Assembly (NCBI GenBank): GCA_963714745.1
Contig: CAVQPK010000002.1
Location: forward strand, 2,239,531 to 2,303,530
From: an uncultured Acidobacteriota bacterium
GTDB lineage: Bacteria > Acidobacteriota > Thermoanaerobaculia > Thermoanaerobaculales > Sulfomarinibacteraceae
Length of the DNA: 64,000 nt
Reading direction: 5' to 3'
In this document: one piece after another, positions 3,781-27,885 of the stretch
Layout of the letters: each line of letters begins with the position of its first letter
Numbering within the stretch: the first letter of the stretch is position 1
Translations under genes and position numbers: made by a program
The notes under the pieces: generated by a model
The model's input: the letters and a program-made list of their open reading frames with translations, nothing else
Database searches by the model: none
Told to the model about the DNA's origin: nothing

Positions 3781-4887
3781 GTGCTCCTGACGCCGAGGTC
3801 CACGGTCGGCAGGGCGGCTTGGCTGCTGCTGCTCGCGCTGCTGGCCCGGGATGGTCTCGCCCAGTCGCCGTCGCCGCCCGAGGTCGAGGGGACGACGCCC
3901 GCGGCCCCGACCGGAGACAGCCAGGCGGAGCCCGCCGCAGAGGCCGACCCCTGTGCGGCGCCGCTGATCGAGGGCGGCCAGTGGATCGACCTGACGCGGG
4001 ACCGTCTGTTCCGAAGCGTGTGCGTGTCGGCGCGCTGGTTCGACGGGTTCTTCGGCGACGCCCGCTTCGATCACCAGATCACCTCGACGCTGTTCGGCCG
4101 CGCCGGCCTCGGGCTGTGGTGGAGCGAGCACGACCGGTATGAGGTTCCGAGCGATTTCCGCGCCAACATTCCCCTGCCCAACCTGCACGAACGATTCGAC
4201 GTCACCGTTGCCCGAGAGAACGAGGACGAGTTCGTCGAAGGACGCCTCGAGGGCCGCAACGTCGCTCCCGATTTCGTGACCGCCACCGAGGGCCAGGCGT
4301 GGCTCGCAGGACTGGGCTACACCCCGATCGCGGGGCGGAACAGCCGGATGCGCTACTCGGTTGGCGTCCGGCTGACCTGGCCGCCCGCTCCCTTCGTCCA
4401 GGCACGGTACGGGTACTACCATTTCTTCTCCCACCGCTCCGCCCTCAGGTTGCGGGAGACCGCTTTCTGGCGTCTCGACGACGGTTTCGGAGCCACGACC
4501 GCAGCCGAGCTCGAGCACCTTCTCGGCCCGACCCGCTTCGTCCGCTGGTCGAACGTCGCCACCGTCTCGGAGGCCTCCCGGGGGATCCGGTGGCGTTCGG
4601 ACGTGACTCTCTACCAGGATCTCCCCGGGCCGCGGGCCCTCGCGTACACGGTCCTGGTCAGGGGCGAGACCGACGCCCCGGTGCCGCTCGAGCGCTGGTC
4701 GTTGCGCACGGTGATCCGGCAGCAGATGCTGCGCGAGTGGTTCTTCGTCGAGCTGGGCGCCGGGGTCTCGTGGCCGCGCAGGCGAGTGGACGACCCCCGC
4801 ACGCCGTCGTGGGGCGTCGGCATCCGGTTCGAGGTCTTCTTCGGCCAGTGGCCCGACGGGCCGCTGCCGGGCGGAGGCTTCGACTGA
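3781..4887 (+). CDS. Secreted hypothetical protein (signal peptide; beta-rich, outer-membrane-like)
   Basis: Full listed ORF. The N-terminus 'RAAWLLLLALLARDGLAQSP' looks like a signal peptide. The remainder is rich in aromatic/Arg/Gly alternation. No family recognised. Confidence 0.7.
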   Translation: MLLTPRSTVGRAAWLLLLALLARDGLAQSPSPPEVEGTTPAAPTGDSQAEPAAEADPCAAPLIEGGQWIDLTRDRLFRSVCVSARWFDGFFGDARFDHQITSTLFGRAGLGLWWSEHDRYEVPSDFRANIPLPNLHERFDVTVARENEDEFVEGRLEGRNVAPDFVTATEGQAWLAGLGYTPIAGRNSRMRYSVGVRLTWPPAPFVQARYGYYHFFSHRSALRLRETAFWRLDDGFGATTAAELEHLLGPTRFVRWSNVATVSEASRGIRWRSDVTLYQDLPGPRALAYTVLVRGETDAPVPLERWSLRTVIRQQMLREWFFVELGAGVSWPRRRVDDPRTPSWGVGIRFEVFFGQWPDGPLPGGGFD

Positions 4888-4890
4888 CCG

Positions 4891-6132
4891 TCAGCCGATC
4901 CGGTCCGCCAGGTAGTGCACGAGGTCGCTCATGCGCTGGGTGTAGGACCCGTGCTCGTTGTCGTACCAGCCGAAGACCTTGAGGTGGGTGACCGGGATCT
5001 CGATCACCCGCTTTTCCGGCGGCAGGTCCGGCAGCAGGGCGAGCTCGCCGAGGTCGACCCGGGTGAAGCCGGTCCGGGCGTGGGTCTCGTGGCCCTCGAT
5101 GACCACCGCGGACCGCTCGGCGATCATGTCGGTCGACACGTTCTGGCGGTCGGAGAGCACCACCCCCGAGCCAAGCGCCTGCGCGTAGTCGCGGTAGATC
5201 CCGTTGACCGTCTCGCGGTTGATCAGCGAGTCGCCGTTGTCATCCAGCTTCGACTGGAAGGTGCAGTTGAGGATGATCAGCGACGCGGTCGAGATCGGCA
5301 CGCGCACCGAGTCGGCGAGGAAGCCGATGGTCGCGATCTCGGGGATCACCGACTCGAGGGCGCGGGCCGCGTTGGTCGAGGTGAGGATGATGTTGTTGAG
5401 CACCGAGCGGGTCTTGCGGAGGTCCTTGGCGCCCGCCTTGGGGACCTTGTCGAGCACGCTCTGGCTGTTGGTCGCGGCGTGCACGGTGGACATCGAGGCG
5501 GTCAGCATGACGTGGGTCAGGTCGTGGCGCAGCAGCGGCAGCAGCATGTGGGCGAGCGCGGTGGTGGTGCACGAGGCCGCCGACACCAGGCAGTGCCGGC
5601 CGGGGTCGAAGCGCTCGTGGTTGATGCCGTAGATCAGCATCACGCTGTCGTCCTCGAGCCGGCGGCTGCCGTCCTTGGTCTTGAAGGCCGACGACGCCAC
5701 CACCACCTGGGCGCCGGCCTCGAGGTGACCCTGGAGGCTGCCGCCCGGGTGGGTGGACGGCAGGGTGGGGTCGAGGTAGGTGCCCGTGGTGTCCACCACC
5801 AGCCGCGCGCCGTGCTCCCGCCAGCCGATGTCCTTGGGGTCCCGGTGCTCGGTCAGCAGCTGGACCTCGATCCCGTCGATCTCGAGCGTTGCGCGGTCGC
5901 GGTCGACGACCCGGATCGGGTCCTCGGTCCCCGAGAATCCCTTCAGGAAGCGCCCGATGCGCCCGTAGGTGCTGTCGTGACCGAGATAGTGGACGAGGTC
6001 GTCGAGCGACCTCCCGACCTGGCGGCCGGTGTGCACGACCAGCCGGCCGAAGCGCCGCGAGCCCACCTCGTGCCAGACCGTCAGCTTGCCGATCCGCCCG
6101 AGCCCGTTGATGCCCAGAGTGGTTCCGTCCAT
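4891..6132 (-). CDS. Glyceraldehyde-3-phosphate dehydrogenase-like protein (divergent, about 413 aa)
   Basis: Motifs: 'INGLGRIGK', 'SAASCTTTALAHML' (catalytic Cys context), 'FGWYDNEHGSY'. The start is taken at ATG 6132 because AAGGAG lies 6 nt upstream. The track start, GTG 6147, overlaps the upstream stop. Confidence 0.85.
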   Translation of the reverse strand: MDGTTLGINGLGRIGKLTVWHEVGSRRFGRLVVHTGRQVGRSLDDLVHYLGHDSTYGRIGRFLKGFSGTEDPIRVVDRDRATLEIDGIEVQLLTEHRDPKDIGWREHGARLVVDTTGTYLDPTLPSTHPGGSLQGHLEAGAQVVVASSAFKTKDGSRRLEDDSVMLIYGINHERFDPGRHCLVSAASCTTTALAHMLLPLLRHDLTHVMLTASMSTVHAATNSQSVLDKVPKAGAKDLRKTRSVLNNIILTSTNAARALESVIPEIATIGFLADSVRVPISTASLIILNCTFQSKLDDNGDSLINRETVNGIYRDYAQALGSGVVLSDRQNVSTDMIAERSAVVIEGHETHARTGFTRVDLGELALLPDLPPEKRVIEIPVTHLKVFGWYDNEHGSYTQRMSDLVHYLADRIG

Positions 6133-6143
6133 GGCGCGCTCCT

Positions 6144-9100
6144 TCACGTCAGACGATAGGGCAGTGCCGATGTCGTGACCTCGTGCTCACCGAGGGAGAC
6201 GGTGCCTTGATAGCCGTCGATCGAGATCACCTCGCCGGGCGCCAGCGTGCGGTCACCGATGCGCGCCGAGCGCTCGCTCTCGGAGACGTCGAGACCCGAG
6301 CAGTTCACCACGCAGCAGATGCCGAGCCGTTTGGCGGTGACCGCGGCGTGGGAGGTGAAGCCGCCGCGGGCGGTGAGCAGCCCGTCGACGGCCACCACCA
6401 GCTGGATGTCCTCCGGAACGGTGTCGGGCCGCAGCAGGATCACCTTTTCGCCCGGGTGGGCGCCGCGCAGCGCGAGCACGTCGTCGCGGGTGAAGGCGAC
6501 CCGGCCCACCATCGCTCCGCCGGCGACGCCGATGCCGGTTCCCAGCAGGTGGTCTCGCATGGTGGCGGGGCGCGCGAAGACCTGGACCTCGTGCTGCCGC
6601 ACGAGGCGCATCGGGCGCACCTGGAGGAGGTGGAGGCCGGCGGCATCCGGCGACTCGAAGGTGAACTCGATCTCCTGGTGCTCGTAACCGTGCTCGTTCA
6701 CCAGCAGCGACGCGATCTGGAGCAGCCGGTCGAAGACGTCGGGGAACGCCAGCTCGAGCGACATGTCGAGGTGGGGCGAGTACTCCTGGCGCTGTTTCTC
6801 GCTGACCGGGTACGGCCGCACCAGGCCACCGACCACGTCCTCGCCCTGCGATCGCAGCGTGAAGTCGCCGAACAGCCCGATGCCGGTGGTGGAGGTGCGC
6901 GGGTTGCGGGTGAAGGTGACGCCGGACCCCGACTCGTCGCCGAGGTTGCCGAACTTCATCTCCTGGACGATGACCGCGGTGCCCCAGTCGTCGGAGGTGC
7001 CCACCTGAGTGCGGAAAAGCCTGGCGGGCTCCGACTGCCACGATGCCGTCACCAGCCGGATGGCTTGCGCGAGCTGCTCGTCCGGCTGGTCGTGGAGCTC
7101 GATCTGGTGCTCCTCGCCGATCTTCCGGTAGGCGAGCGTCATCTCGCGCATCTGCTCGGCGGTGAACGCGGTCTTGCGTCCCACCCCGTGTCGGTCCTTG
7201 AACCGCTGCATCACATCGTCGAAGACGTCGCGCGGCACGCCCTGGGCCATCGCCACGTTCTGCAGGTACCGGCGGTAGCAGTCCCAGGCCCCCCATGCCG
7301 GGTGGCCGGCGCGGATCATGCCTTCGACGACCTTCGGGTCGAGCCCGACGTTGAGGATGGTGAGCATCATGCCCGGCATCGAGAAGGCCGAGCCCGATCG
7401 AACCGAGAGCACGAGGGGGTGGTCGGGATCGCCGAGGTGGCGTCCGGTGGCGAGCTCGACCCGCCGCACCGCGTCGATCAACCGCTCCCGGGTGTCGGCG
7501 GCGACATCCTGGTCCCCGAGCGCCTCCTCGAGGTGGTACAGCTCGGTCGAGATCACGAATCCCGGGGGAACCGGCAGACCGATTTCGGCCAGGCGCTTGA
7601 GGGAGAAACCCTTGTAGCCGAGGCTGAGCTGGTCCTCGTGCGGCTCGACCGGGTCGTGGAGGTGGCTCACGAGCCGGGACGGGGTGTAACCGAGCACCGC
7701 GCCGCAGGCCCGCTGCGAGAGGTTGGCGGTCATCCGCCGCAGGGTGCGCAGGATGCGGCGCAGGAAGACGTCCATCTCCTGGATCGCGTAGGTCGACGCG
7801 ATCAGCGCCCGGAACAGCTCCTCGCTGACGCGGTCGGCCGCCGGACCGCCGCGGGCGCCGTCGCGGGCGGCGAGCTGGCCCGCCATGCGCCGCAGGTTCG
7901 GGTTGTGAAGCGAGAGGTAGTTGGTCTCGACAACGCCGTTGAGCGCTTCGGACATGAAGTCGAAGACGTTGAGGTACTGCTCGGCCGAGAGGTTGCCGAG
8001 GGCGAGGGCGCGGCCGAGCAGGTCGAGCTTGGTGGACAGGTGGTGCACCCTGAGGCCCGCGATCCGGAGCCCCGCCAGCATCTGCTCGAGGATGGCGTGG
8101 GCGTCGCGGATCGACTGCCGGGTCATGTAGCGGTAGTTGAACTCGGCGACCAAGGCCTCGAGATGGGGTCTGACCAGCTTCATGGTGCGGATCATCAGCC
8201 CCATGGCGTCGAACTTCGGCTCGCGGTAGGTGCCGTACATCGACGGGATTCCGGCCGCGATGTGGCGCTTGTGGAAGATGTTCTCCTCGGCCTCGGTGAC
8301 CGCGGTGTCGACGATGGTCTGCTTGAGCTCGGCGAGCACCCGGTTTCCGGCGCGCACGATCTCGAGGTGGTCGTCGCCCAGGCATGCGGCGACGAAGTGC
8401 GATCGGACCTCCACCGAGACCAGCGGCGAGCCGTCGAGCATGGTCAGCAGCTGATCGGGGGAGTGGGTGTACTTCGCCTCGAGCAGTCGAGCGAGCCGGA
8501 CCAGGAGCGCGGCCCGCTCGCGGTCGATCTCGCCCACGCCGGCGATCGCCGCGATGAGACGCTCGAGCTCCTGCTGGTCGACAGAGTCCAGCGACTCCTC
8601 CGTGATCCCGGCCTGGCGCTCGAGTGCGACGGCGATGCGGTTCATGTCGCGAAACCACTCGACGTCGGGGTCGAGCCGGGCCAGGATGGTGGGCGGCAGG
8701 TAGCCGGAGAGGGGCAGCGAGTCCCCGGTCCGCCACCAGGACCAGACCGCGCGCGCGAAGCCGACCAGGCGGTTGTTGGACTCGGCGTGGGCCTGTTTGC
8801 GCAGGTAGTGGATGACCGGGTCCTGCCGCTGGCGGAGCTGGTCGATCCGGGTCGACACGTCGCGCAGCTCGCCCTCCGAGCCGACCTCGTTGAAGAAGAC
8901 CGGGAAGAACCCGACCAGCTGCATGATCAGGTTGAAGGCGTGAGCGATGTCGGCGTTGAGCAACGCCGAGATGTCGCGCTGGAAGAGGTCGGTGTCCGAC
9001 ACGAACACGCCGTGCAGGTGGAGGTTGATCACCAGCGCCGACAGCAGCTGCTCGTACTGGATCGGGTCGCTCTCGATGATCGCCAGCCAGGCCCGCACGC

Positions 9101-10253
9101 ACGGAAGGTGGTTCGGGTTGACGTCGACCTCCCACTCGTCGGAGACGCCCCGGATGTCTGGCGGCTCGAAGCCGGTCGCGATCGTGCGCTCGACCAGGTG
9201 ACGGGTGATGACGTGGCTGCGGCGCGCGGCGATGCCCTCGCCCAGCTTGGCCAGGCACTTGTAGAGCAGGAATCGGGTCGACGGCTCGCAGTCGCGGAGG
9301 TGTTCGCTGATCAGGTCGACCGCCCGCACGATGTCGTCCTCGCTGCCGGCGTCGCAGGCGGTCTTGATCGAGTAGTAGAGCGTGCGCAGGATCTCCATGC
9401 CGCGGTGGGAGAGCTCGGGCACGTCGGCGAGCGCGACGTAGAGCCCGATACGCTCGGCCGGGTTCACCACCTGGCCGGCGCCTTCGAGAGCGAGGTTGAG
9501 GAGGTCGTCGAGATTCGGGACCGCGTACACCGCCGGGGCTCCGTCCGTGGCGAGCCGGTCGCGGGCCGCCTCGACCGCCTCGCGGATCGGCGCCGCCACC
9601 TTGGCCGCGCTGTCCTCGGCATCCGTGCTCCGGCGCCGGCCTGAGAGGCCGGCCGAGCAGCTGAAGACCTCGAGGCCGCGCTCGACCACCCCCCGGTAGA
9701 GCTGCGCGAAGGCTCGGCCGGAGGCGCGTTCCGGGTCGAGCCGTGAGCCGACGCGCTTCATCAGTCCTGAAAAGGGCAGCACCGCCGTCACGTCGCGCTC
9801 GACCATCTTCGCGAGCTCCTCGAGCGCGGCGTCGAGGGCGGGTTCGAGCTGATCGCGGAAGCGCGACTCGTCGAGATGCGTCACCAGCTCGAGGTGGCTG
9901 CCGACCGCCGACTCGACGACCGCAGACGGCGGGGCCGCCCGGTAGAGCTCGGCGAGCAGCCTGGTCAGCAGCAGCGCGCACTCCAGCCGCGCCGGGCCGC
10001 GTTCGAGGTAGTGGAACATCCCGCCGCACAGGTTGCGCAGCTGGGTGGCGATCTCGGTCAGGTTGCGGTAGGGGTGGAAGAGCTCTGTGAGCAGCTTCTC
10101 GGCTGCGCGGCGAACCCCCCAGAAGGGCGCGACGGCCTCGAGGAGGATCCGGTAGTCGGCCGGGATCTCGACCTCGTGCCGGGTCTCTTCGAGATTGGCG
10201 CGCAGCGCCGAGGACGCCACCTCAGGGCTACGAGGGTCCGATCGGGTCGCCAT
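6144..10253 (-). CDS. PEP/pyruvate-binding (PPDK N-terminal-like ATP-grasp) plus PEP-utilizer swivel-His domain protein, with an unrecognised N-terminal region of about 875 aa
   Basis: Full listed ORF (1369 aa). The C-terminal third carries 'LSLGYKGFSLKRL', 'LSVRSGSAFSMPGMM', 'AVIVQEMKFGN', 'GSGVTFTRNP' and 'LTARGGFTSHAAVTAKRLG'. No PEP/pyruvate TIM-barrel domain follows. Confidence 0.85.
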   Translation of the reverse strand: MATRSDPRSPEVASSALRANLEETRHEVEIPADYRILLEAVAPFWGVRRAAEKLLTELFHPYRNLTEIATQLRNLCGGMFHYLERGPARLECALLLTRLLAELYRAAPPSAVVESAVGSHLELVTHLDESRFRDQLEPALDAALEELAKMVERDVTAVLPFSGLMKRVGSRLDPERASGRAFAQLYRGVVERGLEVFSCSAGLSGRRRSTDAEDSAAKVAAPIREAVEAARDRLATDGAPAVYAVPNLDDLLNLALEGAGQVVNPAERIGLYVALADVPELSHRGMEILRTLYYSIKTACDAGSEDDIVRAVDLISEHLRDCEPSTRFLLYKCLAKLGEGIAARRSHVITRHLVERTIATGFEPPDIRGVSDEWEVDVNPNHLPCVRAWLAIIESDPIQYEQLLSALVINLHLHGVFVSDTDLFQRDISALLNADIAHAFNLIMQLVGFFPVFFNEVGSEGELRDVSTRIDQLRQRQDPVIHYLRKQAHAESNNRLVGFARAVWSWWRTGDSLPLSGYLPPTILARLDPDVEWFRDMNRIAVALERQAGITEESLDSVDQQELERLIAAIAGVGEIDRERAALLVRLARLLEAKYTHSPDQLLTMLDGSPLVSVEVRSHFVAACLGDDHLEIVRAGNRVLAELKQTIVDTAVTEAEENIFHKRHIAAGIPSMYGTYREPKFDAMGLMIRTMKLVRPHLEALVAEFNYRYMTRQSIRDAHAILEQMLAGLRIAGLRVHHLSTKLDLLGRALALGNLSAEQYLNVFDFMSEALNGVVETNYLSLHNPNLRRMAGQLAARDGARGGPAADRVSEELFRALIASTYAIQEMDVFLRRILRTLRRMTANLSQRACGAVLGYTPSRLVSHLHDPVEPHEDQLSLGYKGFSLKRLAEIGLPVPPGFVISTELYHLEEALGDQDVAADTRERLIDAVRRVELATGRHLGDPDHPLVLSVRSGSAFSMPGMMLTILNVGLDPKVVEGMIRAGHPAWGAWDCYRRYLQNVAMAQGVPRDVFDDVMQRFKDRHGVGRKTAFTAEQMREMTLAYRKIGEEHQIELHDQPDEQLAQAIRLVTASWQSEPARLFRTQVGTSDDWGTAVIVQEMKFGNLGDESGSGVTFTRNPRTSTTGIGLFGDFTLRSQGEDVVGGLVRPYPVSEKQRQEYSPHLDMSLELAFPDVFDRLLQIASLLVNEHGYEHQEIEFTFESPDAAGLHLLQVRPMRLVRQHEVQVFARPATMRDHLLGTGIGVAGGAMVGRVAFTRDDVLALRGAHPGEKVILLRPDTVPEDIQLVVAVDGLLTARGGFTSHAAVTAKRLGICCVVNCSGLDVSESERSARIGDRTLAPGEVISIDGYQGTVSLGEHEVTTSALPYRLT

Positions 10254-10348: not shown

Positions 10349-10801
10349 TCAGCGCTTCCGCATCCAGAGCTCGGTCCCGCCGCGCTCGAATCGGACCTCG
10401 TCCATCAACTGGTTGATCAGGAAGATGCCCCGACCGTGGCTGCGCATCAGGTTGTCGGCGGTGACCGGGCTCGGCAGCGAGGCGGGATCGAACCCGGGGC
10501 CGGGGTCTCGGATGATGATCAGCAGCCCCTGGTCGGGCTCGCAGGCGACCGTGATCTGGACCCGGCTCTCGGGGTCCTCGTGGCAGCCGTGCCGCACCGC
10601 GTTGGCCAGCGCCTCGAACAGCGCCACCTCGACCTCGTGCTCCTTTTCGCGAGCACATGCGAGATCCGAGATCGCCTCGAGGATCTGCTCGACCGCGGGT
10701 CCGATCGCCGCGATCTCCCCAGGGATGGTGAGCTCCAACCGCACCTCGAGGGCATCGAGGTCGATCGTGCGCGGTCCGTGTTCGGGTTCCTGCACGGTCA
10801 C
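10349..10801 (-). CDS. RsbW/SpoIIAB-like anti-sigma regulatory Ser kinase (HATPase_c_2-type)
   Basis: Full listed ORF (150 aa). Motifs: 'ALFEALANAVRHG', 'IIRDPGPGFDP', 'GRGIFLINQLMDEV'. Confidence 0.8.
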   Translation of the reverse strand: MTVQEPEHGPRTIDLDALEVRLELTIPGEIAAIGPAVEQILEAISDLACAREKEHEVEVALFEALANAVRHGCHEDPESRVQITVACEPDQGLLIIIRDPGPGFDPASLPSPVTADNLMRSHGRGIFLINQLMDEVRFERGGTELWMRKR

Positions 10802-10962: not shown

Positions 10963-11700
10963 TCAGAGGCGGAACCGCTGGACCAGGATCATGTCGTAGT
11001 GCGAGATGTCGAGATGCAGCCCCGAGCTCTCACGCCGGGACTCGCCGGGCGACTCCTGGGCGCCCCAGCCGTAGAGCGGCGAGAGGTGGTCCGCCAGCGA
11101 CCCCATGAGACGCTCGAACGCTCCGCTGCTTTCGTAGGCCCGCGCCCGCGCCTCGGACTCCCAGAGCGTGACCGAGAGCGCGCGCAGACGGTTGCGTTCG
11201 CCCTCGACCAGGAGCGCGGCGCGGCATCCGGGTGCGGCTTCGAGCACCGGGATCACGTCGTGCTCGTAATGCTGGCGGAAGGCGTCGAACTCGCCGCCCG
11301 CGATCTGCATCGAGACCACCCGCGCGTGGGGCGCGCGGGCGCCGTGGTCGGCGAGCAGGGCGTCGACACCCTTGGCGAGCTCGACCGTGTAGGTCTCGAC
11401 CGGAGGGTCGGGCACCGGCACCACGGTCGAGGGAGAGGTCGATTCGGTGCGCGTGCCCTCGAGGAACTCCTCGAAGCCGTCGAGAAGGCCGTCGTACTCC
11501 CCCGAGCGCTCGTAGCGCTCGGCGTGCTGCCTCTGCCTCCACAACGTCACCGAGAGGAAGTCCCCCGGGGTCGTGGAGGAGCGCAGGAGACCGGCAAAGA
11601 GGCAGCCTTCGACGTGCTCGAGGGTCGTCAAGACCTGCTCGGCGTAGAAACGCCGGAGGGGCTCCTCGGAGCTCTTGATCCGGACGAACCGCAGGTACAT
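10963..11700 (-). CDS. Tandem ABM (antibiotic biosynthesis monooxygenase / Dabb-fold) domain protein
   Basis: Met9 of ORF 10963..11724, with GGGAGG upstream. Two repeats of the pattern '...LSVTLW(R/E)...A(E/R)(R/A)YE(R/S)SG...'. Confidence 0.7.
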   Translation of the reverse strand: MYLRFVRIKSSEEPLRRFYAEQVLTTLEHVEGCLFAGLLRSSTTPGDFLSVTLWRQRQHAERYERSGEYDGLLDGFEEFLEGTRTESTSPSTVVPVPDPPVETYTVELAKGVDALLADHGARAPHARVVSMQIAGGEFDAFRQHYEHDVIPVLEAAPGCRAALLVEGERNRLRALSVTLWESEARARAYESSGAFERLMGSLADHLSPLYGWGAQESPGESRRESSGLHLDISHYDMILVQRFRL

Positions 11701-11977
11701 CGTGCCTCCCTGGTTGCGTCCCAAGTCGAAACCGCGATCCAGTCACAGAAACGTCTGAATCGATAGTAACCCGGATTACCCTGATTCGGCGATCGATCCG
11801 TTGCCGCGCCGGTCTGCGGACGCAGCCGACACCTCGTGAGCTGTCCGGGCTCGAGACCAGGAGCTCGGAAGCGAGGTGGGGATGAGCCGAGCGCGACGGG
11901 ATGGCCCAGGGGCACGACTTCGAGGGCGCTTTGGCACGGTCGGCCGGATCCCCCGCCCGGCGACCGTCGCGCCGAGG

Positions 11978-12451
11978 TCAGTGCGGCGTGAGCTTGTGGG
12001 AGGCGTGGTCGGCGAGACGCTCCGCGCGGCGGTCGGCGAGGGCGAGAATCCGGCGCAGGGTCCGGACCAGCTCGTCGGGATCCACCGGCTTGGTGACGAA
12101 CCCTTCGGGCGGGGACTCGGCGCGGTCGTAGATGACCTTGCGGAACTCCGGGTGGCCGGTGACCACGCAGACTGGGATCTCGCTGGTTTCGGCCGTCCGG
12201 CGAAGCTCGGTGAACGCCTCGATCCCGTCGTGGCCCGGCATCGACAGGTCGAGCGTGATCAGGTCGGGCTGAACCGCGGTCGCCACGGCAAGGGCCTCGT
12301 CGCCGTCGGCGGCCTCGCAGATCTCGGCTCCGGCGTCGGCGAAGACCGCGAGCAGGAAGGTGCGCACATCCTCCTCGTCGTCGACCACCAGGATGCGTCG
12401 ACCCGCGAGGGGACGGGAGTCCGGCCGGGCGTGCGGTTTGGAGGGTTCCAT
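11978..12451 (-). CDS. Single-domain response regulator (CheY-like receiver)
   Basis: Full listed ORF. Motifs: 'RILVVDDEEDVR', 'PDLITLDLSMPGHDG', 'VVTGH...KP'. Confidence 0.85.
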   Translation of the reverse strand: MEPSKPHARPDSRPLAGRRILVVDDEEDVRTFLLAVFADAGAEICEAADGDEALAVATAVQPDLITLDLSMPGHDGIEAFTELRRTAETSEIPVCVVTGHPEFRKVIYDRAESPPEGFVTKPVDPDELVRTLRRILALADRRAERLADHASHKLTPH

Positions 12452-13292: not shown

Positions 13293-14051
13293 TCACGGCG
13301 ATGGTGGTGCACCCGCCGGGCCCGGGTCCGGCCGGTCCTGGTCCCCGGGAGTCGAAGTGCGCGACCGTTCCGCCTGCCAGCGGGCGCGCCTCTCCTCGAT
13401 CACCTCGGCAGCGGCCTCGACGTCGTCGACGCAGGTTGGCAGCGCCGCGTCCCCGGCGCCTGCATACGCCGGGTCGGTGTCGACCATGTGGCGGTTCGCC
13501 CAGGCCACCAGGTCGGCCCACATCGGACCGACCAGCACCAGCGGCACGTCCACCAGGTGGTGGACCTGGAGCAGCTGCCACACCATCACCAGCTCGAGGG
13601 TGGTGCCGATGCCGCCGGGAACCACCACGTAGGCGTCGGACATCCGGGCGAAGTGGTGCAGTCGCGAGAAGAAGTTCCGGTGGGTGTAGAGCTGCTCCAC
13701 GAAAGGGTTGGCGTGCTGCTCGAAGGGCAGGTCGATCCGGATTCCGACCGACGCGGTGCGGTCGTCGGGATCACCGAGCTGGGCGCCCTCGTTGGCGGCC
13801 TGCATCAGCCCGGGTCCGCCTCCGGTGATGAGGTCGCAGCCGGCGGCCGCCAACCGCTGGGAGAGCCGGCGCACGTCGGCGTAGAGCGGCGAGTCCGGCC
13901 GGACGCGTGACGAGCCGAAGAGGGTGACCCGGAACCGGTCCGCAACCGGCCGCACCTGGGAGAGCTGATTGGCCACCTCCCACAGGGCGAGCAGCGCGCG
14001 GTCGACGATCGCGACCGTGCGTTCGTTCTCCACCGCTGACGGGTGACCCAT
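13293..14051 (-). CDS. LOG family / TIGR00730 Rossmann-fold nucleotide-binding protein
   Basis: Met14 of ORF 13293..14090, with GAGGAGG upstream. Motifs: 'ITGGGPGLM', 'VVPGGIGTTLE'. Confidence 0.85.
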   Translation of the reverse strand: MGHPSAVENERTVAIVDRALLALWEVANQLSQVRPVADRFRVTLFGSSRVRPDSPLYADVRRLSQRLAAAGCDLITGGGPGLMQAANEGAQLGDPDDRTASVGIRIDLPFEQHANPFVEQLYTHRNFFSRLHHFARMSDAYVVVPGGIGTTLELVMVWQLLQVHHLVDVPLVLVGPMWADLVAWANRHMVDTDPAYAGAGDAALPTCVDDVEAAAEVIEERRARWQAERSRTSTPGDQDRPDPGPAGAPPSP

Positions 14052-14392
14052 GACGACCTCCTCACCGAGTCCGACGAAGGTACCATGCACCGTCCGGCCG
14101 ACCGCCCGGTCACCGCGGCCCCGCCGCGACGGCGGCGCGGGCGTGTCCGGAGGTGTCGAGCCGGAGGTGCGGCAGCCCTACGGCAAGCTCCTCGGAGGGG
14201 CAGCGCGCTGCGATCCCTCCGCGGCTCGACCAGCCGTTTGGTCGCGCAACCGGGTCCCGGTGCCGGCTCTTGCCGGCGTCTGGGGAGGCCGTCGTGCTGA
14301 GTCTCGGGGCCGCGTTCGAGCTGGAGCCCGCCGGGGAGCTGGTCCTAAGACCATTCATTGAAACATCTTCCGACCGTCAACAGTAAGAGGGC

Positions 14393-25254: not shown

Positions 25255-27885
25255 ATGCAGCGAAGCGTCCTCCGCGTGTCAAGATTTGTAGTGGCGGCCG
25301 TCCTCGGGGCGGCCGTCGCCCTTGCCGAGCCCCCTGATCGCGACTCGCTTGAGTACGACCTTTTCGCGACTCGGCGCACATGGTGGATTCCCAGCAACGG
25401 GCAGAGCTTCCAGGGGCTCTGGCGGTACGAGCCAGAAACGGGGGAGTGGGAACGGCTCCGACCGCTCTTCTTCAATCAGCAGACGGACCGTTTTACCCCG
25501 TACAGCCGTAATGGGTACGGGGCTTTCCTCGCAGGGACGGGAGACCGGCTCGTCTTTCAGGTCTGGCCCGCAACCCAGGAGTGGGAGCTCGGCACCTGGC
25601 GGCTGCTTCGTCGGTACGCCCCAATGCCTCGAGAAGCGAGCGGTTGGGTGCTCCACGGCCCAATCGTGTCTGCGGAGATTGCGGCCTCAGCTGGGATCGA
25701 AGCTGGAGCGTACGGTTTTCCGCTGTGCCTGCGCTACCACCTCACCAGCGGCCTCGAACCGGTCGGGCCCGTGAGTTGCGATCCCATCCGCATTCCGGGA
25801 TCAGCTGCTGATGCTGAAGAGACATCGACCTCGCTCCTCGTTATCCAGGGGAGCGGGCCAGCACGAGCACTCACGGATTCGTTCGACCTTGGCCAGGTCA
25901 CCTGGGAGACTGGGAACTCCGGGGTCGAATCACCGCCGGTATTGAGTCTCGACCCAGACAGGAGCGTCCTGTACCGGGGAACACCAAGCACGCTGCAGGA
26001 GTGGACGCTGAGCTGGCCACCAGTCCTGACCAGCGAGATCGACGTTCCCGTGTCGCTCGTCGCACATCCCTACACAGATGTCGACCTGCTGTTCTTTCAC
26101 CCACGCCGAGACCGTTTCTTCTGCGTTACCCGTTCCCCGGCCCTCTTCGGAATTCAGCCTGAAGAGTGGGAGGTGTTCTCCTTTCGACACGACGGTGCTG
26201 ACGTGACTTCGCACGTCCATGTCACAGACGAGGATCCGCTGGGAGTACCCGTCACCCTCGCAGCGGTTGGCGCGGCACCGACGGTGAACACACAGCTCAT
26301 CCCAGTTGTGAGTCGCACGACGGGGATCAACAACACGTTCTGGACGGCAGAGCTCTGGCTGTACAACCCATCCGCGGCCGAAATGGCAGTGACAATCCGG
26401 CGGATCGTCAGCCCTCAGTCGTCGACTGCCGTGACGGTACCGGCGTACGGTTCGCTCCGCATACCTGACGCACTCGCCTGGCTCGGCGGCGGCGAAGCCG
26501 GCGACGGGGTCAAGGCCGATGCGCTCGTGCTCACCTCGCCCTACCGGTGGGGGGCCAACCTCGTCGCCGCGGCCCGAGTCTCGACACCTGCGGAGGGAGG
26601 AGGCAGCTACGGCCAAGCAGTTCCCGCGGTCCCGAGCACGGTCGGGTACTCCAACCACCTTCCGTACTACCCCGAGGAGAGCGACGCCAACTACAACATC
26701 CACTGGGAGGAGCGGCGTCCAGCAACCCTCACGCTCGACCTGCGCGAGCCCGGCCGCTTCCGTCATAACCTCGGAATCGTGAACGACGAGGACGAGCCCG
26801 TTGAGATCACGCTCGAGTGGGCGTACAACCTGATGGCCGAGCAGGATTCCACCGACCTTCGGCCAGCGGCCGTGGTGCAGCGCGTCGCCGCCCCCGCGCA
26901 CAGCGTTCACATCGTCTCGCTCGAGGGCCTCTTCCCACCCGAGGTGCGCGACGCGTGGCCGCCTCGGGTTGCGGTCTACGCCGACCGGCAGGTGGCGCTG
27001 TGGCTGTCGATGGTCGACAACCTGACCGGTGACGCGACCTTCATTCCCTACACCAACCTGACCCTGCATACCGACCTCGACGAGGACTGGTATGCCGTCC
27101 CGGTCGTTGCTCACAGCCCGGGCAGGGAAGGTACGTTCTGGACCACTGCTCTCTACGGTACGGAAGGACGATTCCTGCATCGTTTCGAGTATGACAAGCC
27201 CGACGCTGCCTTCCTGCCGGCAGATCCGGTAGCCGCGTGTGGCGGTGCCGCAGCTGCCGACCGGATCGCCGCCGTCTTGCCAGGAGAGGTGGGCATGCCG
27301 ATGGACCGATGGCTGGAAACGCTGCAAGGCCTCGGCTACGAGCCCACTGAGGACTGGGCGAAGCGAGAATGGCGCACGGTCTTCCCCGACGTGGTCAGGC
27401 TCTTCCCCGCCTGCGCCGAGGAGGACTCCACGAGGGGTGCCCTCGAGGTGCGCGCCGGCTCGTGGACGGCGGGCTTCACCCGCACCTTCACGACCCGCGC
27501 TGACGGCGGCACGTACGGCAGCATGCTGCCCTTCTACCCCCCACACGGCTGGCCGGTGCAGCACTTCGCAGGGATCGAGGTCCGCGCGGGGTGGCGCGTG
27601 AACGTGGGCCTCTACAACGGCCAGCGTGACCGGGCGGTCGTCCACCGCCTCAGCCTCTATGCCGCGGACGGCACGCTCGCGGCCCAGAACGAGCTGACCC
27701 TCGACCCGGGAGCGAGCCTTCTCGAGCCCCTCGCGACCGCACTCGGGGTCCCCTCGCTTCCCGACGGGACGTACGGCTTGACGGTACTTCCCCTCGACGA
27801 CCCCGAGACCGGCGACCAGGGCACCTCCTGGGCCTACGTCTCGCTCGTCGACAACGTCACCGGCGACCCGACGAACTGGTGGTGA
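25255..27885 (+). CDS. Large secreted hypothetical protein (876 aa) with an internally duplicated uncharacterised module
   Basis: Full listed ORF, SD GAGGTAGG upstream, signal peptide 'RFVVAAVLGAAVALAEP'. There are two modules. Each opens with '(I/V)PVV(S/A)..G...TFWT(A/T).L' and closes with 'S(M/L)VDN(L/V)TGD(A/P)T'. GC content and codon usage are visibly lower than in the flanks. Confidence 0.8.
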   Translation: MQRSVLRVSRFVVAAVLGAAVALAEPPDRDSLEYDLFATRRTWWIPSNGQSFQGLWRYEPETGEWERLRPLFFNQQTDRFTPYSRNGYGAFLAGTGDRLVFQVWPATQEWELGTWRLLRRYAPMPREASGWVLHGPIVSAEIAASAGIEAGAYGFPLCLRYHLTSGLEPVGPVSCDPIRIPGSAADAEETSTSLLVIQGSGPARALTDSFDLGQVTWETGNSGVESPPVLSLDPDRSVLYRGTPSTLQEWTLSWPPVLTSEIDVPVSLVAHPYTDVDLLFFHPRRDRFFCVTRSPALFGIQPEEWEVFSFRHDGADVTSHVHVTDEDPLGVPVTLAAVGAAPTVNTQLIPVVSRTTGINNTFWTAELWLYNPSAAEMAVTIRRIVSPQSSTAVTVPAYGSLRIPDALAWLGGGEAGDGVKADALVLTSPYRWGANLVAAARVSTPAEGGGSYGQAVPAVPSTVGYSNHLPYYPEESDANYNIHWEERRPATLTLDLREPGRFRHNLGIVNDEDEPVEITLEWAYNLMAEQDSTDLRPAAVVQRVAAPAHSVHIVSLEGLFPPEVRDAWPPRVAVYADRQVALWLSMVDNLTGDATFIPYTNLTLHTDLDEDWYAVPVVAHSPGREGTFWTTALYGTEGRFLHRFEYDKPDAAFLPADPVAACGGAAAADRIAAVLPGEVGMPMDRWLETLQGLGYEPTEDWAKREWRTVFPDVVRLFPACAEEDSTRGALEVRAGSWTAGFTRTFTTRADGGTYGSMLPFYPPHGWPVQHFAGIEVRAGWRVNVGLYNGQRDRAVVHRLSLYAADGTLAAQNELTLDPGASLLEPLATALGVPSLPDGTYGLTVLPLDDPETGDQGTSWAYVSLVDNVTGDPTNWW

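Follow-up and report, generated by a model that had tools for sequence, protein, structure and literature searches.

The locus and its two genes

The 64-kb window analyzed here (64,000 nucleotides of contig CAVQPK010000002.1, from an uncultured Acidobacteriota bacterium) has a G+C content of ~72% and carries two adjacent genes on the minus strand that are the subject of this study (Table 1). The upstream gene encodes a 1369-aa protein that resembles pyruvate, phosphate dikinase (PPDK) in its C-terminal part and lacks the phosphoenolpyruvate (PEP)/pyruvate barrel of that enzyme; this barrel-less dikinase is called BIG below. The downstream gene encodes a 413-aa paralogue of glyceraldehyde-3-phosphate dehydrogenase (GAPDH), called GAP*. 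The two genes are found side by side in many bacterial lineages, and we have little doubt that BIG and GAP* constitute a conserved functional module.

Both reading frames look like real genes in the G+C content of their codon positions, with GC3 of 0.93 for BIG and 0.96 for GAP*. The stop codon of BIG (TGA, 6146-6144) is overlapped by a Shine-Dalgarno (SD) sequence, AAGGAG, at 6145-6140 (TGAAGGAG). A spacer of 6 nt separates the SD from the ATG of GAP* at 6132-6130, which makes 11 nt from stop to start; the junction reads ...CTGACG TGA AGGAG CGCGCC ATG G.... A first-pass annotation, made from the sequence alone, had described a 1369-aa protein with a PPDK-N region and a swivel His, followed 11 nt after its stop by a GAPDH-like open reading frame (ORF) of 413 aa whose SD, AAGGAG, overlaps that stop. 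The Pfam matches and H1302 bear out the first part of this description at the same coordinates, and the second part is correct as well.

Table 1. Coordinates of BIG, GAP* and other features of the window.
Feature	Position (nt)	Strand	BIG residues	Basis or remark
BIG gene	6144..10253	-	1-1369	1369 aa; stop codon 6144-6146 included
BIG N-terminal helical repeat region	9222..10253	-	1-344	AF2 model and alignment
BIG N-domain conserved core, putative phosphoryl-acceptor site	7644..9221	-	345-870	Alignment
Invariant motif DTDLFQRD	8973-8996	-	420-427	Alignment
Invariant motif FFNExGxEGELRD	8859-8897	-	453-465	Alignment
Invariant motif HxLRKQxHAESNN	8772-8810	-	482-494	Alignment
Invariant beta-hairpin KRHIAAGIPSMYG	8232-8270	-	662-674	Alignment
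BIG ATP-grasp nucleotide-binding domain, PPDK-type	6606..7643	-	871-1216	Pfam and PPDK alignment
BIG linker and swivel phosphohistidine domain	6147..6605	-	1217-1369	Pfam PEP-utilizers at aa 1269-1350
His1302 codon, in GGFTSHAAV	6348-6350	-	1302	Motif
BIG/GAP* junction	6133..6146	-		Stop, SD, spacer
GAP* gene	4891..6132	-		413 aa; divergent phosphorylating GAPDH paralogue
368-aa ORF	3781-4887	+		Converges on GAP*; GC3 0.89
RsbW-like HATPase_c_2 anti-sigma kinase	10349-10801	-		Upstream of BIG
Double-ABM-domain protein	10963-11724	-		Upstream of BIG
Stand-alone response-regulator receiver	11978-12451	-		Upstream of BIG
LOG/SLOG protein	13293-14090	-		Upstream of BIG
876-aa ORF	25255-27885	+		No Pfam match; G+C 0.66-0.67

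The C-terminal half of BIG is PPDK-like and has no barrel

Two Pfam domains, and no others, were found in a scan of BIG: PPDK_N (PF01326; aa 877-1148, E 1.4e-26) and the PEP-utilizers mobile domain (PF00391; E 2.8e-18). In a search of the Protein Data Bank (PDB), residues 878-1360 were colinear with residues 19-513 of the PPDK of Clostridium symbiosum (E 4e-84; alignment to 1KBL/9PZL). The residues that matter for catalysis in that enzyme have counterparts in BIG: K22 (in LGYKG), R92 (in the SVRSGS..SMPGMM loop), the GEDVV motif, the Mg-binding Glu E323 (in IEFTFE), and Q335 and R337 (in LQVRPMR). The catalytic His is H1302, within the swivel motif GGFTSHAAVTAKRLG (aa 1297-1311). BIG scores 367 bits on the PPDK model TIGR01828, which is below the equivalog level (cut-off 843). 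The scores fall to 53-64 bits on the PEP synthase models TIGR01418 and PRK06464 (cut-offs 598-740) and to 31 bits on the rifampin phosphotransferase (RPH) model NF041857 (cut-off 999), the latter from the His domain only. Judged by these comparisons, the C-terminal half is much nearer to true PPDK than to PEP synthase or RPH, and the excess of the PPDK score over that of PEP synthase favors a chemistry that uses phosphate and pyrophosphate (Pi/PPi).

The protein ends 9 residues past the end of the PPDK alignment (PPDK residue 513), just ahead of the linker to the TIM barrel. The ORF thus stops at about PPDK residue 520, and the PEP/pyruvate barrel (PF02896) gave no Pfam match in BIG. A tblastn search with a genuine PPDK barrel found none within the window, and among 139 related loci it found one match, a separate canonical PPDK that lies ~6 kb from BIG in a Syntrophales locus (L008). 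Hence BIG is not a split PPDK, and a barrel encoded in trans is ruled out by the search of the window and the 139 loci. The absence of the barrel, which the first-pass annotation had noticed for the ORF itself, thereby extends to its neighborhood. Another ORF of similar size in the window (~1317-1370 aa; 49640-53593/53749, minus strand) was considered as a possible paralogue of BIG, and turned out to be a sensor histidine kinase with a Reg_prop beta-propeller (HisKA and HATPase_c).

The N-terminal 870 residues of BIG are a new conserved domain

The remaining 870 residues, on the N-terminal side, are a new conserved domain. No sequence or profile match to it was obtained in Pfam, NCBIfam, PADLOC or the PDB: a Pfam search extended to E 10 returned a chance match to SfsA (E 0.045), and the profile search of the PDB returned only stathmin noise. 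AlphaFold2 (AF2) models residues 1-870 as all-alpha, with a pLDDT of 89 for the whole domain and 91.7 for its core. Foldseek found no structural match for this model in the PDB apart from weak, generic solenoid matches with TM <0.2.

The helical repeat region at the N-terminus is conserved less than the core, with A16, L17, N20, T24, E57 and H60 as its invariant residues. In the alignment of 69 sequences, whose identity goes down to 25%, ~50 positions of the N-domain are invariant. These are rich in Arg, Lys, His, Asp and Glu and are clustered in the motifs of Table 1, of which the FFNE motif extends further as FFNExGxEGELRDVST..D....R.D (aa 453-478). Among the invariant residues are D420, T421, D427, E460, R464, R476, D478, H482, R485, K486, H489, K662, R663 and H664. 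Such a set of charged residues would be expected where Mg-dependent phosphotransfer to or from an anionic ligand takes place. The N-domain may be the second, catalytic active site of BIG.

GAP* is a divergent GAPDH with a complete catalytic apparatus

GAP* has both GAPDH domains, Gp_dh_N (PF00044; E 2.8e-12) and Gp_dh_C (PF02800; E 3.5e-17), and its Rossmann motif, GINGLGRIGK, is of the GxGxxG type. The catalytic Cys188 (nt 5569-5571), which corresponds to Cys149 of GAPDH, stands in the motif SAASCTTT, and His218 corresponds to His176. The protein is ~80 residues longer than canonical GAPDH and has six insertions specific to its subfamily, and it is ~28-32% identical to canonical and to solved GAPDHs. 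Its best relatives in the PDB include the GAPDH of T. thermophilus (1VC2; E 6.5e-32 over residues 6-293), and the subfamily itself has no solved structure. On TIGR01534 it scores 260.8 bits against a cut-off of 367.2, so that GAP* represents a divergent subfamily and not the standard equivalog.

The catalytic apparatus is complete. The first-pass annotation had remarked that the GAPDH-like partner keeps the context of the catalytic Cys, and in fact Cys149, His176, T179, R195, T208 and R231, which make up the catalytic dyad and both anion sites, are conserved in 55/55 orthologues of GAP*. By contrast, Asp32 is found in 0/55 of these orthologues, which have T, Q, V, L, I or A instead, and in 16/16 canonical neighbors. 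In GAP* of the window, the position is taken by Thr35, followed by Gly36-Arg37, and this Gly-Arg pair is invariant among the orthologues. Loss of Asp32 is known to end the exclusive use of NAD in GAPDH, and the 2'-phosphate of NADP can be held by an Arg close to this position. Because Asp32 is lost, GAP* is likely specific for NADP(H) or able to use both cofactors, as gluconeogenic GAPDHs such as GapB of B. subtilis typically are.

BIG and GAP* are neighbors in many genomes

The pairing was examined from the side of BIG in 59 loci from species representatives whose sequence extends 1.6 kb or more beyond the gene in either direction. Of the 59, 46 have a GAP* orthologue, 45-83% identical to that of the window, no more than 3 kb from BIG, and 9 of these 46 also have a canonical gap. 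In six further loci (6/59), a canonical GAPDH of ~335 aa alone is present within this distance. The orientation of the two genes is not fixed. Among all 52 loci with GAP* within 3 kb, whatever the flank length, GAP* directly follows BIG on the same strand in 18, whereas the two genes converge in 29 and diverge in 5, and the gap between the genes is usually <200 nt. The three gene orders are spread over Acidobacteriota, Syntrophales, Thermoleophilia, Clostridia, Bacteroidota, Atribacterota and Calditrichales. Since adjacency is kept despite rearrangement, functional coupling is indicated rather than inherited gene order. The same observation qualifies the proposal of the first-pass annotation that the two genes are co-translated: the junction in the window fits this idea, but it is one of three arrangements, and BIG and GAP* are convergent in most Syntrophales.

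Linkage also holds in the reverse direction. On metagenome contigs with at least 2 kb on both sides of the gene, BIG is adjacent to GAP* orthologues in 21 of 26 loci, and the N-domain was found at none of 11 control loci with canonical GAPDH. Synteny in other genomes, on which the first-pass annotation had made its proposal depend, is thus strong in both directions and across many phyla. When the ORFs neighboring the pair were clustered all against all, BIG and GAP were the sole families common to the lineages. In seven loci of Bacteroidota and Chlorobiota (L049, L054, L061, L064, L065, L067 and L079), no GAP* was found nearby, and a canonical, Asp32-containing GAPDH of ~335 aa divergently adjoins BIG. 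BIG is therefore associated with GAPDH generally, and not with GAP* alone.

The module is embedded in glycolytic operons

After BIG and GAP, the next commonest neighbor family is that of phosphoglycerate kinase (PGK) and triose-phosphate isomerase (TPI), found at 18 loci. Pfam confirmed PGK, TIM, SecG, RapZ, CofD, WhiA, UvrC and iPGM among the neighbors. In one locus, BIG, GAP*, pgk, tpi and secG follow each other on one strand (L135). In Thermoleophilia (L023, L029, L060 and L082), GAP* and BIG lie divergently between uvrC-rapZ-cofD-whiA on one side and gap-pgk/tpi-iPGM on the other, as an insertion into the classical actinobacterial gap cluster. In Syntrophales, BIG converges on an operon gap-pgk-(tpi)-GAP* (L008 and L034). 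In Bacteroidales, BIG stands between both kinds of GAPDH on one strand, as gap (335-337 aa)-BIG-GAP* (415-416 aa) (L074 and L093). Finally, five loci lack an adjacent BIG, and in these GAP* opens a gap-pgk-tpi(-secG) operon (L106, L112, L113, L121 and L125). In many lineages, the BIG-GAP* pair stands alone amid unrelated genes.

This embedding in gap-pgk-tpi operons points to the chemistry of triose phosphates and 1,3-bisphosphoglycerate (1,3-BPG). As GAP* heads these operons or fills the place of gap in them, it is most simply read as a true, class-divergent GAPDH, and its operon slot lends indirect support to a putative activity on glyceraldehyde-3-phosphate (G3P) and 1,3-BPG. For the same reasons, the substrate of the pair is probably not exotic, in contrast to the first-pass annotation, which had left it as some unspecified compound. 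The other part of that proposal, a pair that phosphorylates and then reduces, probably stands.

Two further gene families recur at these loci. At 7 loci (L112, L121, L124 and others), a small gene for a GNAT acetyltransferase either separates GAP* from pgk or directly precedes BIG. An aldehyde dehydrogenase (ALDH) gene of 530-590 aa lies directly beside BIG or GAP* in L005, L006, L018 and L063, and also in L007. For the two ALDHs that were scanned, those of L005 and L063, the best or second-best NCBIfam match is archaeal GAPN, the NADP-dependent non-phosphorylating G3P dehydrogenase, with 175-197 bits against a cut-off of 780, and the ALDHs were not used as evidence.

A possible dikinase reaction at the GAPDH step

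The usual successor of gap in an operon is pgk, whose product handles the acyl phosphate made by GAPDH. BIG holds this pgk-like place beside GAP*, and a phospho-His exchanges with acyl phosphates, as is known from succinyl-CoA synthetase; the pair 3-phosphoglycerate (3PG) and 1,3-BPG is thus the most economical choice of substrates. We consider it rather probable that BIG is a dikinase acting at the GAPDH/triose-phosphate node. Our specific proposal, in which BIG is a Pi/PPi-dependent dikinase at the GAPDH node that most likely interconverts 3PG and 1,3-BPG and is paired with GAP*, is a tentative one that we hold at somewhat less than even strength. Confidence in the substrate pair, 3PG and 1,3-BPG specifically, is equal to this or slightly lower. 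We are a little more hesitant still about the proposal in its full form, that BIG may be a '3-phosphoglycerate, phosphate dikinase' with a new active-site domain, channelled with a dedicated NADP(H)-capable GAPDH.

The reaction would proceed as follows. At the ATP-grasp domain, ATP and Pi would load His1302 with the beta-phosphate, with release of AMP and PPi in a reversible manner. The His domain would then swing to the all-alpha N-domain, which would be the second active site in place of the PEP/pyruvate barrel and would catalyze 3PG + ATP + Pi <-> 1,3-BPG + AMP + PPi. Conversion between this labile acyl phosphate and G3P would fall to GAP*, probably with NADP(H) or with either cofactor. BIG and GAP* would thereby be the AMP/PPi-linked counterpart of PGK and GAPDH, applying the logic of PPDK to the other step of substrate-level phosphorylation. 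The standard free energies are about -49 kJ/mol for hydrolysis of 1,3-BPG and about +46 kJ/mol for formation of ATP from AMP and PPi, so that the proposed reaction would be near equilibrium, like that of PPDK. Coupled to PPi removal and to NADPH, it could pull gluconeogenesis forward. In glycolysis, it could recover ATP from AMP and PPi, and syntrophs are known to make ATP from AMP and PPi (PMC4992975). As many of these operons also contain pgk, BIG would be a route parallel to PGK and not its replacement. The dependence on Pi/PPi, the choice of cofactor and the direction in which the module runs in the cell are inferences.

Several points weigh against this proposal. The window itself has no pgk or tpi nearby, and the neighbors of the pair in it are regulatory. 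No GAPDH lies within 3 kb of BIG in 7 of the 59 loci. The presence of PGK in many of the same operons means that BIG is not needed as a replacement, a point that is neutral to mildly negative. A C3 acid would be a small ligand for a domain of as many as 870 residues. The substrate is read from gene context, and the only pointer to NADP(H) use by GAP* is the loss of Asp32.

Alternative functions for BIG must be weighed against the same evidence. Since its C-terminal half is most similar to genuine PPDK, its relatives are annotated as PPDK or PEP synthase by their sources, and the module sits among glycolytic genes, BIG could be a non-canonical PPDK or PEP synthase in which the N-domain replaces the barrel and the substrates are still pyruvate and PEP, lying near gap through the common pathway. 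The two-way linkage, however, is specific to GAPDH, three steps away from PEP, and not to eno, pyk or pyruvate-metabolising genes. Moreover, a dedicated GAPDH subfamily co-occurs with BIG, a canonical PPDK coexists with it in L008, and the N-domain has no similarity to any PEP- or pyruvate-binding fold. We therefore regard a pyruvate/PEP enzyme as quite unlikely. A slightly better chance, still a low one, is given to a module that acts on some other phosphorylated or carboxylated small molecule, with GAP* retuned to a different aldehyde or acyl phosphate, for example of a phospho-sugar acid or a semialdehyde. The divergence of GAP* (261 versus 367 bits, six insertions and an altered cofactor site) would suit such a role, as would the isolation of the pair among unrelated genes in many lineages, the diversity of acceptors among other dikinases and the ALDH genes that adjoin it in some loci. 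Yet the residues of the phosphate sites for G3P and 1,3-BPG (T179, R195, R231 and T208) are invariant in GAP*, several genomes have GAP* in the gap slot of gap-pgk-tpi operons, and BIG also lies beside canonical, Asp32-containing GAPDH in Bacteroidota and Chlorobiota.

BIG might also be regulatory or directed to proteins: it could pass the phosphate of its His onto GAP*, GAPDH or a relay partner, or serve as a helical scaffold that senses adenylate or PPi at the GAPDH step. Residues 1-344 are a helical repeat array, the sole weak Foldseek matches are protein-binding solenoids, and the invariant H382, H482, H489 and H664 are possible relay sites. Enzyme I of the phosphotransferase system (PTS), from the same superfamily, phosphorylates proteins. 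Against these stand the generic nature of the solenoid matches (TM <0.2), the enzyme-like density of invariant charged residues in the core, and the lack of any conserved regulatory partner in the neighborhoods, GAPDH aside. Enzyme I itself has no ATP-grasp, and we know of no other PPDK_N-containing enzyme that targets proteins. A regulatory BIG is thus the least probable of the functions considered.

Comparison with known enzymes

We place BIG, together with GAP*, among the swivel-histidine dikinases. The two genes form a module of central metabolism that is widespread but unannotated, and its candidate acceptor domain is structurally new. The closest known system is PPDK (EC 2.7.9.1; C. symbiosum, PDB 1KBL/1DIK), whose ATP-grasp and swivel His are homologous and colinear with those of BIG, with the key residues kept. 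The three-step mechanism of PPDK through His-PP and His-P with Pi/PPi is probably valid for BIG too. BIG differs in having no TIM barrel and in carrying an unrelated, all-alpha domain of 870 aa on the opposite, N-terminal side. Its His domain forms the C-terminal end and has a tether on one side only. RPH and the PEP synthase-like dikinases of PRK06241 share with BIG the ATP-grasp, a non-barrel acceptor domain and a C-terminal swivel His. RPH, however, has its acceptor domain in the middle, after the ATP-grasp and before the His domain, whereas that of BIG is N-terminal and unrelated. The likeness to RPH drawn by the first-pass annotation is thus right as to the ATP-grasp, the swivel His and a non-canonical candidate acceptor domain, but BIG is nearer to PPDK and its new domain is at the N-terminus; the resemblance goes no further than an acceptor domain that is not a barrel and a terminal His domain with a single tether. 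The plant dikinases GWD and PWD are also ~1400 aa long, with a long N-terminal substrate-binding region fused to dikinase modules. GWD has its His domain ahead of the nucleotide-binding domain and carries carbohydrate-binding modules at its N-terminus, whereas the N-domain of BIG is all-alpha without a signature of such modules, and its context is glycolytic and not glucan-related.

PGK is the proposed functional analogue of BIG: it lies beside gap in operons, where BIG occupies the equivalent place, and interconverts 3PG and 1,3-BPG. There is no homology between the two. PGK uses ADP and ATP directly without a phospho-enzyme, whereas BIG would use a phospho-His together with AMP + PPi / ATP + Pi. 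GAP* resembles class I GAPDH in both of its domains, in the Cys149/His176 dyad, in the Ps- and Pi-site residues and in the C-terminal WYDNE, and differs from it in its greater length, the six insertions, the Gly-Arg after position 32 and the loss of Asp32.

The family places an unstudied enzyme that handles ATP, AMP and PPi in the most studied pathway of biology. To our knowledge, the PGK step is the last ATP-handling step of the Embden-Meyerhof-Parnas pathway without a known PPi-linked version. If our proposal is true, BIG would catalyze a new reaction of central metabolism, a PPi/AMP-linked variant of this step. It would alter the ATP yield or driving force that is calculated for many anaerobes, among them Syntrophales, Bacteroidales, Atribacterota and Acidobacteriota, and engineers of metabolism would gain a new enzyme with which to adjust ATP yield. 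With a different substrate, the module would still define a new acceptor domain for swivel-histidine dikinases. A full-text search of the literature found no account of the BIG family or its architecture, of a PPi- or AMP-dependent PGK, or of a phosphoglycerate dikinase.

Distribution of the BIG family

Searches with the N-domain returned hundreds of proteins, virtually all of 1350-1450 aa and of the same architecture. Those that carry an annotation are uniformly misnamed as PPDK, PEP synthase or PEP/pyruvate-binding protein. A phmmer search of 1.84 billion cluster representatives (50%-identity clusters) gave 415 matches with E<=1e-3, 147 of them with E<=1e-30, and no other domain architecture was seen among the full-length relatives from this search. 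A scan of species-representative genomes, one genome per species, gave at least 594 confirmed matches. Among the matches listed, carriers of BIG are mostly anaerobes and include Syntrophales/Smithella and other Thermodesulfobacteriota, Bacteroidales, Atribacterota, Clostridia, Acidobacteriota, Thermoleophilia/Gaiellales, Calditrichales, Chlorobiota and Riflebacteria; the closest relative of the window's BIG among them, with 75% identity in the core, is from an Acidobacteriota metagenome-assembled genome. Despite its actinomycete-like G+C content, the window may thus stem from an Acidobacteriota-like genome. Cultured carriers of the family include Desulfatitalea alkaliphila, Desulforhabdus sp. 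TSK and Thermosulfurimonas marina.

A few members deviate in their domain content. One homologue of 1520 aa (P0079) has an extra hemerythrin-like domain (PF01814), which hints at sensing of O2, redox state or metals in some family members. On the metagenome contig Ga0209122_1000002 (L134), BIG is divided between an ORF of 926 aa and the next one, of 472 aa, with the cut at about the boundary between the N-domain and the ATP-grasp; this is either a natural split or a frameshift. A protein of 921 aa without Pfam domains (P0048) may be a stand-alone N-domain akin to the first of these two ORFs.

Other features of the window

Four genes upstream of BIG encode an RsbW-like kinase, an ABM protein, a response regulator and a LOG protein (Table 1). 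They were considered as partners of BIG and rejected, as none of them is conserved beside BIG in other loci. On the other side, the 368-aa ORF that converges on GAP* has the codon bias of a gene (GC3 0.89) and had no match in Pfam, NCBIfam or PADLOC. A defence system or mobile element was also considered and rejected, as PADLOC gave no match for BIG, GAP* and two neighboring proteins. The whole 64-kb window contains no tRNA genes and no Rfam family at the gathering threshold. The stretch occupied by the 876-aa ORF is the sole part of the window with a clearly lower G+C content than the ~72% of its surroundings, and may be foreign DNA.

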